From Escherichia coli (GTDB lineage Bacteria; Pseudomonadota; Gammaproteobacteria; Enterobacterales; Enterobacteriaceae): a DNA stretch of 64,000 nt. The position numbers are program-made. Of the stretch, positions 16,101 to 22,100 are shown one piece after another (position 1 is the first letter of the stretch; every line of letters begins with the position of its first letter). The stretch lies in assembly GCF_030013595.1 (NCBI RefSeq), contig NZ_CP122769.1. One strand, given 5' to 3'.

Positions 16101-19100
16101 CTTTACATCCATTTTTTTAGGCCTGCCATTTATCTTGACGACATTATGTCTGTCATCAAAAAGAAATTCGTCCCCCTCAAAAGTGATTAATACAAATGGC
16201 CCCTCAGGCTTGGAAGTCCGGGGACTTCCCATTTTCAAAGTCATACTTCAGCCTCTCGATAGAACTCATGAAACCTCAAATTAAAATGGACTCACACCAC
16301 ACTGATTCAGTATTCCTCCTGAACCCCATTAGGCTCTGTTGTGATTTCATATTTAATACCGCCAGGTGCTCCCACAGCGTCCGCGACCGACTCACACAGC
16401 AGCGAGAGATCGTTGAGGGTCATTGGGTGTTCAATGTCCAGCGTGAAGAGTTTCCCGGCTTGCTTGGCGGCTGTCTTGTCAGCATGTTCAGCATTAAAAA
16501 GGTATACGGTGTGTTTTTCCTGAGCGGGGGTATTTTGATTTTGCATTGATGATCCTTTTGTTTAGTTCCCCGATTCCGGGGGTGAGTGAATTAATTTAAA
16601 TTTATATTTGTCTGGTTTAATTAGAACGTTTCCAGGCTATGCGTAAACAGGTAATGCAAAGGCTGTATCAACAGGATTAAAGTTACTTTTCTGGATGCAG
16701 CAACGCTTGGACATGATGTCCACATTACATCACGATCAAAGCTAAGTTTTTTTTGTATAACCCCTTCATTTTCGTGTGTTTCGCGTTTCAGACGCTTATA
16801 CGACCTGCCTGACCATCCTCATCAGAAGGCGGTTTAACAGTCCTTTCGCTGTCGGGCGATTGCTATCGACATAGTAAAAACCTGTTTTGGTCGTACCGTG
16901 AGCACTGCTCAGCACCCTCAGTTCCCAGATAACGTCACGGATAACGCCGCCATTTTCTGGCTTAAGGCATTCAGATAAATGGCGCATGAAACGAGCTCTT
17001 ACGGCACGGTAATAGCGGAACTCCTCTGGCTGGTTAGTATTTTCTTTCACCCGGAGTCGCTGGTTACACAGAGTTAGAACTGCATCCATCATTCCCGCCT
17101 TCAGCTTCGCCTGGATCGCACCTTGTTGCTGTTCCCTCTCACCTTCGAGTAACGTTAAGATTCTTTCTCCGAGTGCCGTCTTGTTGTGTACGTGCAACTG
17201 TACACAGGCAGCTACGCATGCCCAGAATCTGAACTTTTTTATCTGTCCACGCAATTTCCGGGCTACAACCTGACGGTATGCAGTATCGCTGAGTATTTTA
17301 AAACGCCGACTGGCAACCAGCTCTGGAAGCGACACTCTTTCGCCTATCCCCAGGCGGGAAAAGGTTTGTCCCCGTTGTGCGAGACGATGATAGACAGCGC
17401 CCTTCCCTTTTGAAATTCGGACCGCGCCATAACGAAGAAGATACTGAGCAGCAGTCGTTGGAGTAAACTCACCGTCAGCGATGCTCTGGCGTAACCCGTC
17501 GTATTCATGCCAGATAATCCAGGACGCCGTATCTTCTTCAACAGTCAGCTCATCCTCTTCCTCGAATGCCACGACGACAGAACTGCTCTCTCCGGTCTTT
17601 AGGCTACGTGAAGCCCTGGGGTCAGCCTGCCCGTCAAAATAGGTCATCAGCGGCAACGTATCAGTCAGTCCATCATAAGCTGTACCGAACCGGCCTCCGG
17701 GCAGTTTCATCCAGAGTGGAGCTGGCATTGGTGTACGGGCCACAGGCAGCATGTCAGGCTCATCCTCAAGAAGGTCCAGATCGGCCTCTTCCCAGACTCT
17801 GCGATAGATCTCAATTGCCCGAAACGGGCGAGGGTTGAAACAGTGCAACGACCAGAGGAAATCAACGTGGATCACGTTTGCTTCATGTACAAGCCGAAAT
17901 TGTGGCTCAGCCATACGACGGTTATAAGCCGTATCGTCCACCTCGCCGGAAAGTAGCTTTCTGCGATGCTTTGCCGCACGTCTGGCTTCAACATAATCAA
18001 GGCTGCAACAGACATGAAAAAGACGTTCAGTCAGGGACGAAGAAAAGATATTGGGTTGAAGACGCACATACCCGCCTTCGAACACTTTACGACCGATATA
18101 ATCCCGCAGGCTCCAGTCGTACTGGATCTTAGAAAGAAATCGCTGAAGACGACTTAGGCCTGCCTGATAACCATATTTCTCAGGGTCAGTGCGAAGGAGC
18201 GTTTCCATTGAATGGTCAACCCCTACGGCTGTGCAAAGCGAGCACCCATATCTAGCCCCACAAGCTGAGGTTCGCGTGGGTTTCTCCGGCGACCAGATAC
18301 ACTCTCCGGTGGCGTCTTTATAAAGCGTTGCCAGGCTGAAGTTATCCGGCATAAAGCTTGGTAAAGGGAAGCGGGATTCGGAACCACAGGCCATTAGAAA
18401 AGACCAGATGTCCTGAGTGCGCCACTCCTTTACTGGATAGAGTTCACCACCGTGCTCAGTCAGGGTTACTTTCCTCGCCTGCCCTCCCATTTTGAGGATA
18501 TTTCCGGCCCTTCGGGCACTTTCATCATCCCTGGAGCCCAGCATCAGGCATACCCTGCTTCGTACGGATGCCGGGGCGTTTTTTAGATAACGAGCTTTGG
18601 CCTTGCGCAGGGGGGCGATTTTGTAGTCGGTTGAGCACTGACGGGTTGAAGAATTAGTCCAGGTCGGAAGTCCACGTCCAGTCAGAATGCGGCCTACCCA
18701 GCTCTGCGTAAGAGACGGTTGGGCGACAAGGACTGTGACCGGTAGCTGGTGTTCAGCAATGAACATTCTAAGCTGGTTGAGAACCTGTGAAGCCTGATAG
18801 TGCATCTCAGGGTTTTCGATCAGCGTATCGGACATCTGAATGAAATGATGTTCGCTGATATTTGTGCCGTTACGTACTGCCCTGATCAATGCCATCAGAA
18901 ATAGGTGAAGAAGAGAATGGGAGTCTTTACCGCCACTGTATCCCACGCACATCGTCCATCCGTCCGTAATAGCCTGATAAATAGCAGATGTGGCTGACGT
19001 GACCAGAGAAGAAAGACTCACAGTCTCCTTTTCATCGGTATAGTTCAGATCGGCATCGGTTGTCAGGGTCTCCCAAACATCAGCCCATTTATCATGTTTC

Positions 19101-22100
19101 AAAATGGCAGCATTAGCCGCCTCAGGAAAAATAACTTCTGAGGGTAATTCAAGGAATGAGTCACTTTTTTCAATAAACATATATTTTCCTGAACCACGGC
19201 ATATGCTGCATCACTGATATTTTTATTAGAACTTTAAAATAACTACAGCGCAACCATTTAGCGAAATTATATTAAATCAAAATCACGCAAATTTAATTCT
19301 TAAATAGATTTAAAATAAAAACCCATTGTAATTTAATCTCCCAGCACAGCTATTAGATATAGGTTGGTGGTGTAATAAAAGCCGTGACATTTGTTTTCAA
19401 CTCAGACAGCGGAATTGAAGGAGTGTTAAGAGTCATGTCATCACCACAATGGCGTGGTAGAGCAGAAAGCTGAAATGAATCTTTCATCACCCTAATAACC
19501 GGGCATTCCGTACGTGCTGATGGCATTACTTCCCGCAGCATCGCTTCCTGCCTTGTGCTATCGCTATGCTTATATTCATCCTGGTCTGTTATTTCTTGAA
19601 TTTCATCTTCACCACAAAATGACCAGTTAGCGTCATAGAAGTAAAACTCAGTTAACTGAAGATCGTTTTTTTTCACGTATGTCGCCAATTTGCGGATACG
19701 CTGTTCAAGCATTGTATCTATCCGTAAGGAAACACTTTGCGGAACATCACTTGCAAAGTCATTGATGCAAACAACGGTAGATACTATGAATTTATTGGTC
19801 ATGGCAGGCTCCAGGCCACCGGGGGAACCGGTGGCTACGGTTATCAGGCAGGCTTATGCGCCGCAAAGGGTGTCAAGGGAAGGAAGAAGCTTGCTCAGCT
19901 TGTCGTAATCGAGCGGAGACAGTTCTGTAACGAGTTCGACCGAAAGACTGGTGTTGTCTTCTTCACTCAGAATATAGATTCCGTCTTCTGGCTCTTTTCC
20001 GGCACATGCCTTCAGTCGTCTGTTAACGACCTCCTGGGCTGAATCCGCTACGTCGCAGCTCAGGACATAGCTTGCCACATAGCTGCTCTCACCGTGGTAA
20101 TGCGTCACTTTACACAGAGCATACTGGATACCGGCTTTGTGAGCCTCATTCATGAGACGAGAAAACTGACAGCCATCCTGGTAATAGTGGGTATCCTTTG
20201 TGACCAGAATAGTCATACCCCCAAATTCATCTGTCCGGCTTTTACTGCATGTAAATGCAGCAGTAATTGTTACCATTTCCGGGAGGTCGAATACCGACAG
20301 CACGGCAGTTGTGAGGCAAATTGCATGGTCAAGATCAATAGTCTCTCCATGAAAAACTGACAGCCCACTGCTGTTAACTTCTGTTGCGAACGACAGTTCA
20401 TAATTACAGTCTGGGCAGGATGGTTGCCCAAAGCTCGGCTCTGAAGGGTCATACTCAGGGTGGTTCTCAATAATACTGAGAATCAGCTTCTCAGTCAGAG
20501 AACAATCTGCCAGTGGCTTATCAAGCAAACGCTCACCTTCTGCAATTTCTGCTTCGGTAACGAATGTGATTGCTTCTTGTGCCATTTTAGCCTGCTCCTG
20601 AGTGCAGGGAATAATAAACGACGCCAGAGTATAATTATCTGCCACAGTTGACTCCTTGATTATTTAATTAATGTATTTGATGAGAAGATCATAACAAACA
20701 CACTACTACCAACTAATAACCTGAAGTCGTTTTTTTAGAAAAAATATTAAGAAGAATATGAACACCACCTCATCTTAAATTAATATTGTTCAGGATTAAT
20801 ATTCATTTTTGCAAATAAAAACCGCCAGACGGCGGCTTTTATAAAGAGGGAAATATCATTGGAAGCTGAAATTACTTCACGGCAGGCCGACAAATTACGC
20901 GACTGCTGTGAGCTGAAGCGAAACTTGTAGAGGAAACTATAATCACCTTTTCTAAGTCGTCGGCACTGTCGGCAATATGATGCCGAAAAGCCTCCTCTGC
21001 ATCACCAGGGGAATCGGCTTCGACCGGGTAGGCCTGATCATCATCATCAAACATAATGCGCCCGGAAATGAGATAAAGTCGGCTCAAATCTGGCGTCGCT
21101 GCGCTCGTGCTTCGTTCGTTCAGATTCATTTTTTCTCCGTCTGTTGCTCGTAAAAAGAATGACGCCGGTTTAAAAGGCGTCGCCAGGGTTCAGGCTAAAA
21201 CGCAGGGTTGCCATCGAGGAAGCTCATTGGCTGGCCAATAGCGGATGCCACCCTGAGAATTTCACCTGGTGTGGCATAGCGCAGCATTTCTGAGCGTCCA
21301 AATTTCTGATACTCATCTACTGACATCTTTCTCCACTCGGGGTGAGGATCTTTTCCGCACAGTGACCAGTTGCTTTCAGAGGAATCACGACGGAGAACGT
21401 ACACATCAAGCGAGGCTGTAAGCCCGCTTCCATATCCCCGCTGCGCTACAATACGAACCTGAGAACCATCGTCGCGTTGCAACGTCTGGGTTAATTTCGT
21501 GATAGGATCCTGAGAATGCATGCCATTTACCTCGTTTTTAAAAGAATTACCGTAAGTAAATGATACCGAATCGAGAATTCTGGCTAATAGGTCAGAAGAA
21601 AAAATATTGCATATTTTTGAAGTGTAGGATAATGATTAGAATAAAATGGCCTGAATAAATCGTTAGCTTTAACTCTGCTTATTTCAGAAAAACTCTGAAT
21701 TAGTAGTGATGGAAAACGACGCGGTGAAAAGTAACTTTTACACCGCAATTCAGAAAAAAGTTTCAGTTAGTCACATTACGAATAACCCGGCTTACTTTCG
21801 CATGTGCGTTCCCCTGCATGTTAAAGTAAAGCCCTCCGGGCAGACTCGTCGCCCACTTAACGCCTCGCTCAGCCATACGCTTCGGTGTTTCCAGCCAACC
21901 ACGAGGAATATTGCCCGGAACGTTACCGATAACCCGTCAAATGCATGCTGCTACCCGGATGCCGCCGGGAATATCGCATTTGGATTCAACAATATGCATG
22001 ACCTCAGATAAAGCACCATGCCGCTGGACATGATCGCCAATGTGCAACTCGATAGGAGAAGCCATTTCTGAATCTGACTTCATATCTGTCCACCTTTAAT

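Follow-up and report, generated by a model that had tools for sequence, protein, structure and literature searches.

A stand-alone DndC-like enzyme of IncHI2 and other conjugative plasmids as a candidate nucleic-acid sulfur-modifying protein

Regarding DNA phosphorothioation, DndC of the DndABCDE system is an ATP pyrophosphatase with an Fe-S cluster that is assembled by DndA, which the host cysteine desulfurase IscS can replace (PMC4611135). The Dnd, Ssp, and bacteriophage exclusion (BREX) type 4 systems need a partner nucleoside triphosphatase (NTPase), namely, DndD, SspC, or BrxC, for this modification; BrxP is also needed for phosphorothioate synthesis in BREX type 4, and gut isolates without a P-loop NTPase made no phosphorothioate (PMC12914056). 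According to the account of An et al. (Nat Chem Biol 2025) given in the same article, tdpC is the only gene of the tdpABC cluster that is needed for phosphorothioate synthesis, which proceeds via an adenylated intermediate. In the present study, we analyzed a 64,000-nucleotide (nt) stretch of Escherichia coli DNA (contig NZ_CP122769.1, assembly GCF_030013595.1; hereafter, the window), and focused on a minus-strand gene at 16796-19180 that encodes a DndC-like protein of 794 amino acids (aa; WP_000469466), together with two small genes upstream. An earlier note on this DNA, made from the sequence alone, had placed three open reading frames (ORFs) here, and their coordinates, all on the minus strand, were confirmed and match RefSeq.

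The 794-aa protein belongs to a large uncharacterized family of stand-alone DndC-type enzymes found on conjugative plasmids and other mobile elements, in which a known catalytic core is joined to a C-terminal module of ~290 aa that matches no known fold. Judged from its sequence, it is most likely an accessory and self-contained enzyme that modifies nucleic acid with sulfur, probably on the DNA backbone. A full-text literature search found no study of this family; PAPS reductase, DndC, and IncHI are also absent from a Nature article of 2024 that deals with the leading regions of plasmids.

Catalytic core and C-terminal module

DndC models were the best family matches of the 794-aa protein (PADLOC DndC, E = 4e-38; NCBIfam PRK06850, 1e-37; TIGR03183, 6e-34), with scores far below the curated cut-offs (TIGR03183, 117.6 vs. 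290.4 bits; PRK06850, 129.9 vs. 536 bits). The canonical DndC from the dndB-C-D-E cluster of Salmonella Infantis (L022), which served as the comparator, scored 529 bits with TIGR03183 and 695 with PRK06850. The motif previously read as SGGKDS (18920-18937) is present as GYSGGKDS at residues 80-87, within a PP-loop ATP pyrophosphatase domain of the PAPS-reductase fold (codons 60-270, 18371-19003, minus strand), and S82, G84, K85, D86, and S87 were invariant in an alignment of 32 homologs with 25-75% identity. The adjoining region (codons 271-354, 18119-18370, minus strand) carries the cysteine cluster with the motif CGARxGCxxCTAV...D..SME, which is shared with canonical DndC; the earlier note had counted four cysteines, and the cluster stands, but the same alignment showed five invariant cysteines, C294, C307, C313, and C316 together with C182. 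In canonical DndC, the same five cysteines hold a 4Fe-4S cluster.

An alignment of the family profile with the Salmonella DndC using hhalign gave 99.9% probability (E = 2.6e-33, 28% identity) over residues 70-353, in which the PP-loop, the CGxRFGCxxCT...D..ME motif, and each of the five cysteines were in register, and the view that the protein is DndC-like rather than a metabolic PAPS reductase was thereby upheld. The alignment stops at residue 353, which corresponds to DndC residue 317, and the comparison of the family module of residues 355-650 with the last ~227 aa of DndC gave an hhalign probability of only 0.8%. The catalytic core is, therefore, specifically of the DndC type, with the remainder of the protein replaced; on these comparisons, residues ~60-353 are a true DndC-type catalytic core, whereas the last 227 aa of DndC have given way to an unrelated module of ~290 aa and a helical tail.

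This family-specific module (codons 355-650, 17231-18118, minus strand) was conserved down to homologs at 25-30% identity, with R359, D395, E398, F428, W443, A455, G585, and R603 invariant. It is followed by a basic (pI 10) helical bundle (codons 651-794, 16799-17230, minus strand), which is the most variable part of the protein and is missing from 669-aa forms and distant homologs; residues 546-650 of the module are also basic, and residues 546-794 as a whole have a pI of ~10. The C-terminal half had been described as unassigned over ~450 aa, and this still holds, with the extent corrected to ~440 aa from approximately residue 354; no Pfam family was found in residues 355-650 of 23 family members. 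Structure prediction of the 794-aa protein, which the earlier note had suggested, was performed with AlphaFold2 and gave a model with a predicted local distance difference test (pLDDT) score of 87, and a PDB fold search with the C-terminal module found no match, despite a model pLDDT of 90. No chain in the PDB resembled DndC or the 794-aa family beyond the PP-loop, and all that Foldseek retrieved from the AlphaFold database were "PAPS reductase domain" proteins without a name, headed by Q935R1 from Salmonella Typhi (75% identical); the enzyme copy on the IncHI1 plasmid pHCM1 is likewise 75% identical.

Only three PADLOC models, those for DndC, MTase_II, and BrxP, matched with an E-value of 0.1 or less (the presence of an SspD model in PADLOC-DB was unchecked). 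The BrxP model covered the PP-loop domain alone (residues 68-264, E = 4.7e-6). BrxP resembles the 794-aa protein in having a PAPS-reductase-type domain fused to an extra C-terminal domain that is thought to handle DNA, but it has an SspB-like DUF4007 and needs BrxC, whereas the 794-aa protein has no DUF4007, and no brxC, brxZ, or brxL is annotated nearby; no ssp genes are annotated near the 794-aa gene either. IbrA/YbdN, with which the earlier note had compared this protein, also has a PAPS-reductase fold, is longer than CysH, and is found on mobile DNA, but it carries DUF3440 and has the ParB-like partner IbrB/YbdM. The comparison did not hold: the HMM searches proposed in that note, namely, for PAPS_reduct, DUF3440, and DndC, returned a weak PAPS_reduct match and DndC below its cut-off, Pfam found no DUF3440, and the supposed ParB-like neighbors were absent, with no ParB match in the upstream proteins. 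As a side observation, the PADLOC model PDLC03333 (MTase_II) matched residues 65-334 (E = 7.5e-23), and some methyltransferases in the set behind this model may carry a fused PAPS-reductase-type domain.

Distribution and gene neighborhoods

Matches to the 3.9-kb region of the three genes, with 95-100% identity, were obtained in 1,006 plasmid records; with few exceptions, these are large conjugative plasmids from the genera Escherichia, Salmonella, Enterobacter, and Klebsiella. The locus belongs to the IncHI2 backbone because the reference match, pSTM6-275, is typed as IncHI2A, MOBH, and MPF_F, and because the window contains, elsewhere, the RepHI2 initiator with iterons, along with genes for Ig-like domains. 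In tblastn searches, the enzyme family was found on 2,658 of 72,556 plasmids (about 3.7%), 2,062 of them conjugative, with at least 95% identity in IncHI2, ~75% in IncHI1, and 47% in plasmids of IncC size; further matches were located on plasmids of Proteus, Aeromonas, and Burkholderia and on Pseudomonas megaplasmids. In a phage collection, the full architecture was essentially absent, and phage matches covered the PP-loop domain alone; one full-length match, AB571791.1, is named Salmonella Typhimurium and is not a phage.

Twelve loci were examined for their neighborhoods, including those from IncHI2, IncHI1, IncC, and KorB-type plasmids, a Pseudomonas megaplasmid, and metagenomic sequences. 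No dndD, dndE, or dndA was present in any of them, and no dndB, dndD, or dndE was annotated or detected near the locus in the window, in agreement with the earlier note. DndC is encoded with dndD and dndE, and often with dndB and dndA, whereas the 794-aa gene is a single plasmid cassette without dndD, dndE, dndA, or, in IncHI2, dndB. Because the TIGR03183 score was 118 against a cut-off of 290 bits, and because dndD, dndE, and dndA were absent beside every homolog examined, we do not regard the 794-aa protein as an orthologous DndC.

The enzyme loci are arrays of small unknown genes, with a polyvalent protein nearby in one. Orphan DNA methyltransferases, a setting that had been noticed in the window and was borne out, recurred nearby in four plasmid families, with N6_N4 and Dcm types in the IncC-like locus, N6 in the KorB-type plasmid, and N6_N4 in the window and in a plasmid with an enzyme that is 61% identical (L011). 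These methyltransferases occupy the same niche as the 794-aa gene and share its presumed logic, that of a single-gene modifier within a one-directional array of small genes, whereas their chemistry and fold are entirely different. When the ORFs of the window were compared with five homolog loci by BLASTP, the enzyme itself was the sole match, and neighbor-versus-neighbor comparisons by BLASTP and hhalign, combined with NCBIfam scans of the neighbors in four loci, revealed no conserved partner.

In the KorB-type plasmid, which represents the one distant clade with such a neighbor, a gene for a ParB-superfamily DGQHR (DndB-like) protein lies two genes upstream of a 669-aa homolog (160 bits vs. 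a cut-off of 59). Solo DGQHR genes were also present on 961 plasmids (DGQHR genes lie, for instance, at 6488-7558 of L003 and 5004-6287 of L023); they are common in plasmid establishment regions, including those of relatives of the IncL/M plasmid pOXA-48, and the IncL/M OXA-48 plasmid examined has one with no DndC-like gene beside it. The link between DGQHR/DndB and the enzyme is suggestive only, and both kinds of solo gene, DndB-like and DndC-like, may be plasmid cargo that has received too little study.

Proposed function and its alternatives

In the explanation that we favor, the enzyme would take sulfur from the host cysteine desulfurase IscS, use ATP to adenylate an oxygen of the nucleic acid, and then put sulfur in place of that oxygen, the most likely target being a phosphate in the backbone of plasmid DNA (phosphorothioation). 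DNA binding and the choice of site, for which Dnd systems have DndD and DndE, would fall to the C-terminal module and basic tail, and the role would be akin to that of the neighboring orphan methyltransferases, namely, an accessory one in self-marking or anti-restriction that would aid the establishment of the plasmid in some hosts. A solo DndC-type enzyme that thiolates nucleic acid for plasmid self-marking is, on the sequence data, the best explanation that we are able to offer, and we put it forward tentatively. In its favor are the DndC-type core, the conserved C-terminal module with its basic tail, the solitary state of the gene, the orphan methyltransferases nearby, the wide spread on conjugative plasmids, and the low dN/dS of 0.10. 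A more specific version, in which a self-sufficient one-polypeptide DNA modifier of IncHI2, IncHI1, and IncC plasmids introduces a phosphorothioate or a previously unseen backbone or base mark at sites chosen by the C-terminal module and tail, and thereby allows escape from restriction or modification-sensing immunity, is possible but rather doubtful. TdpC, as far as it is described in the article cited above, offers a precedent and a purely functional analogy to the 794-aa protein in that a single gene is reported to suffice, with an adenylated intermediate as in the mechanism proposed here; however, in the extremophilic bacteria that have it, TdpA and TdpB accompany it as restriction partners, whereas the 794-aa gene has no such partners and is located on enterobacterial plasmids.

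Several observations weigh against the self-marking explanation. There is no NTPase in or beside the 794-aa locus, and three of the four established phosphorothioation systems need one. Strains with IncHI2 or IncC plasmids are routinely typed by pulsed-field gel electrophoresis and are not known to show DNA degradation of the dnd type, and dense genome-wide phosphorothioation is, therefore, unlikely. The adjacency of a DndB-like gene has to be downgraded, and may be a coincidence, because solo DGQHR genes are common without a DndC-like gene. The enzyme gene itself may be lost: in pEC-IMPQ (L019, NC_012556.1, 2270-5452), which represents a widespread IncHI2 lineage, the catalytic half is gone: an IS903B insertion and the deletion that came with it have eliminated residues 1-311 of the enzyme along with most of the 149-aa gene, the leftover C-terminal 470 aa being annotated as a hypothetical protein. 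The same truncated enzyme is found in further plasmids from Enterobacter, Citrobacter, Salmonella, and Klebsiella, which nevertheless retain a conjugative typing. Of the 1,006 matching records, 658 contain at least 80% of the region in one piece, and about a third lack an uninterrupted copy. This proportion and the IS903B-truncated lineage together indicate that the enzyme gene is accessory.

The position of the locus is a further point on this side. In pSTM6-275, mobI, the mobH relaxase gene, and traD lie at 192-199 kb on the plus strand, and the locus lies at 223.7-227.6 kb in a minus-strand array that starts at ~203 kb, just past the mob/tra block; the likely origin of transfer (oriT) is upstream of mobI, which places the locus ~31 kb away on the relaxase side. 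In conjugation, the relaxase gene usually enters the recipient last. Under this rule, the locus of pSTM6-275 would be transferred late; with the opposite direction of transfer, it would be within the first 35 kb, and the transferred strand would be the template. A study on the oriT of IncA/C plasmids described the MOBH nick site and direction of transfer as still undetermined.

Regarding the two small genes, the earlier note had proposed a three-gene module, and the 263-, 149-, and 794-aa proteins may be thought of as one obligatory three-component modification or anti-defense system. The gene for the 263-aa protein (19854-20645, minus strand; WP_000774870) is the first behind the promoter, with a GTG start and an AAGGAG ribosome-binding site, and the gene for the 149-aa protein (19353-19802, minus strand; WP_000182314) lies 51 nt downstream of it. 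IncHI2, IncHI1 pHCM1, and two plasmids with an enzyme that is 61% (L011) and 52% (L010) identical have the order 263-149-794 and its spacing in common, even with differing flanks. The genes have a common conserved promoter and no internal terminator; all three ORFs are intact and identical to the public annotation of IncHI2 plasmids, and all three genes are under purifying selection: in a comparison with a close IncHI2 relative, the ratio of nonsynonymous to synonymous substitution rates (dN/dS) was 0.10 (794-aa gene), 0.26 (263-aa gene), and 0.35 (149-aa gene).

However, the small genes accompany the enzyme in IncHI-type plasmids only, and this part of the earlier note did not hold. The neighbors of homologs outside these plasmids (IncC, KorB-type, Pseudomonas, and environmental) were unrelated to the 263- and 149-aa proteins, with no remote homology by BLASTP or hhalign; homologs of the 149-aa protein were found in IncHI-like plasmids only, and both small proteins diverge faster (31-49% identity) than the enzyme. 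A profile search revealed 562 representatives of the 263-aa family, many of which were proteins of 150-170 aa, with a common core of ~90 aa that includes the FGG and VT residues invariant among close homologs. None of ten representatives looked up had a descriptive name or a convincing family match, and members checked in other elements had no large PP-loop or DndC-like gene within 5 kb; a 25%-identical relative is located directly after psiA in the Klebsiella MOBH plasmid pWH11 (L017, 7001-7759). A CxxC motif in the 263-aa protein was considered as a zinc site and rejected, the motif not being conserved. Both proteins are acidic (pI 4.4 for the 263-aa protein and 4.8 for the 149-aa protein), gave no matches in NCBIfam, PADLOC, or PHROGs, have homologs without a precomputed Pfam domain, and show no NTPase or DNA-binding signature. 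Since the linkage is limited to IncHI-type plasmids, and since the 263-aa family occurs elsewhere without a DndC-like gene, we regard the trio as a lineage-specific arrangement of separate, probably co-transcribed, cassettes rather than an obligatory three-part machine. The small proteins are probably co-transcribed neighbors with roles of their own and not obligatory subunits, and a three-component system is unlikely.

Another explanation, which we also consider improbable, is that the protein is an RNA thiolase of the TtcA/TtuA/NcsA type, with a PP-loop and Fe-S cluster, that acts on host tRNA or rRNA and tunes the translation of plasmid genes or blunts tRNA-targeting defenses. Matches to tRNA enzymes exist, but they were limited to the generic PP-loop region, and the DndC matches surpass them by more than 30 orders of magnitude; the cysteine motif in its entirety is specific to DndC, and the neighbors are DNA methyltransferases, not RNA enzymes.

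A counter-defense role against phosphorothioate-based immunity (DndFGH, SspE, or PbeABCD), in which the enzyme writes the host mark or titrates IscS or DndD/DndE, appears to have a rather slim chance. Some E. coli and Salmonella hosts carry dndBCDE, as in the Salmonella Infantis cluster (L022), and the enzyme gene is accessory and lost in one lineage; furthermore, a 2026 preprint presents phage PAPS reductases in Aca-regulated operons as candidate anti-defense genes and cites one that helps to evade Dnd. On the other hand, Dnd systems are rare in the hosts, yet the gene is present on most IncHI2, IncHI1, and IncC backbones. A pure decoy is unlikely, with all catalytic residues strictly conserved, and the C-terminal part of DndC that is expected to contact DndD and DndE, a role that is itself inferred, is missing from the 794-aa protein.

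It is very unlikely that the PP-loop core adenylates an oxygen of DNA or RNA that is then replaced by a non-sulfur nucleophile, which would be a previously unseen modification: the adenylation step is common to this and to the favored mechanism, but the full set of DndC cysteines, which hold the Fe-S cluster in DndC, is invariant, and sulfur chemistry is thus indicated. An assimilatory PAPS reductase of the CysH type that benefits the sulfur metabolism of the host is scarcely credible, in spite of the RefSeq product name, the Pfam PAPS_reduct match, and a fold similar to solved PAPS/APS reductase chains, since this match, the only Pfam domain in the full 794-aa protein (residues 78-264), is weak (E = 3.7e-5), the protein is three times as long as those chains (203-227 aa), the DndC cysteine motif is present, no C-terminal ECGLH motif was seen on reading the translation without a pattern search, and there are no other sulfate-assimilation genes nearby.

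If the DndC-type enzyme modifies DNA by itself, a compact enzyme of the phosphorothioation type would be present on about 3.7% of sequenced plasmids, including the IncHI2, IncHI1, and IncC backbones by which resistance through mcr and carbapenemase genes and the multidrug resistance of typhoid are disseminated. This would add a layer of backbone chemistry to restriction evasion, beside orphan methyltransferases and DNA-mimic proteins, reveal a protein module that is able to stand in for DndD and DndE, and establish a plasmid-borne "orphan phosphorothioation enzyme" as an analog of the orphan methyltransferases. The conserved 290-aa module is a clear structural target. Even if the enzyme is inactive on DNA, thousands of records would still be relieved of the misleading label "PAPS reductase".

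Transcription signals and plasmid setting

Upstream of the 263-aa gene, a promoter/terminator scan and an inverted-repeat search detected a terminator-like hairpin (GCCGTCTGGCGGT, followed by a T-run; 20821-20833, minus strand), which would close the upstream transcription unit. Between this hairpin and the gene lies a promoter-like element (20688-20724, minus strand) with TCAGGTTATTAGT at 20724-20712, an 18-nt spacer, and the extended -10 element TGtTATGAT at 20696-20688. The earlier note had listed it as the fourth copy of a recurrent promoter, and it is real: the TCAGGTTATTAGC-like motif occurs in 9 copies in the window versus 1.8 expected, a number that no shuffled sequence reached. Copies of the motif at 330-342, 10706-10718, 13010-13022, 20712-20724, 25817-25829, and 28237-28249 on the minus strand and 33437-33449 on the plus strand, 7 in all, were aligned; here, an extended -10 element, TGnTATAAT, lies 17-18 nt beyond the motif, with a gene start behind it. 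The promoter core GGTTATTAG and -10 hexamer occur at the same place upstream of the 263-aa orthologue in pEB247, IncHI1 pHCM1, and L011, and the flanking sequence has diverged around them in the latter two. The TCAGGTTATTAGC elements, which precede at least seven IncHI2 backbone cassettes, look like one regulon.

Co-transcription of the three genes, as previously proposed, is plausible from the upstream hairpin, the absence of a terminator inside the region, and the conserved promoter, and it is weakened by a possible second promoter in the AT-rich gap of 172 nt that precedes the 794-aa gene. This gap has no terminator and no stable fold (z = 0.95), and an Rfam scan of the window found nothing in it, sok being the only match. 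It contains the element TTGCGC-N17-TCTAAT (19225-19253, minus strand), in the general form of which, TTGC-N17-TnTAAT, the TTGC and part of the downstream hexamer were invariant in five IncHI-type loci. The -10 hexamer lacks A at position 2 and the element was not called by the promoter scan; it may serve the 794-aa gene either as a weak promoter in its own right or as an operator.

On the 3' side of the 794-aa gene, the same scan and inverted-repeat search found no convincing terminator, and the transcript may, therefore, run on through five more genes to a hairpin near 14356. Two of these five are an HNH endonuclease gene (15154-15720, minus strand), with weak PtuB- and retron-HNH-like matches, and a DUF6012 gene (14431-15042, minus strand); no clear terminator separates them from the enzyme gene, and both may be on the enzyme transcript. 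The HNH gene is retained in IncHI2, and not in pHCM1 or L011.

The three-gene locus is enclosed by a run of minus-strand genes from ~8.8 to 33 kb of the window. A sok antitoxin RNA (Rfam RF01794, 81 bits) at 8510-8668 on the minus strand is part of a hok/sok module, at which a Hok toxin gene, a typical gene of plasmid stability or establishment, is annotated in the reference plasmid. The region of the locus combines DUF3085 and methyltransferase genes with hok/sok, and like kinds of genes adjoin the antirestriction gene of an IncL/M plasmid.

The repHI2 gene (41003-42148) lies between two blocks of repeats at 39742-40608 and 42343-42895, which comprise 8-12 tandem 81-bp repeats, each containing the inverted repeat TGACAACGGTAGTGA...TCACTACCGTTGTCA, as well as repeats of 21 bp, and these are presumably iterons. 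Short intergenic repeats, consisting of AAAGTTACTTTyCTGG and TGGACATGATGTCCA-like palindromes, are located between the backbone cassettes at 16679-16760, 11634-11760, 13948-13967, and 22025-22053.

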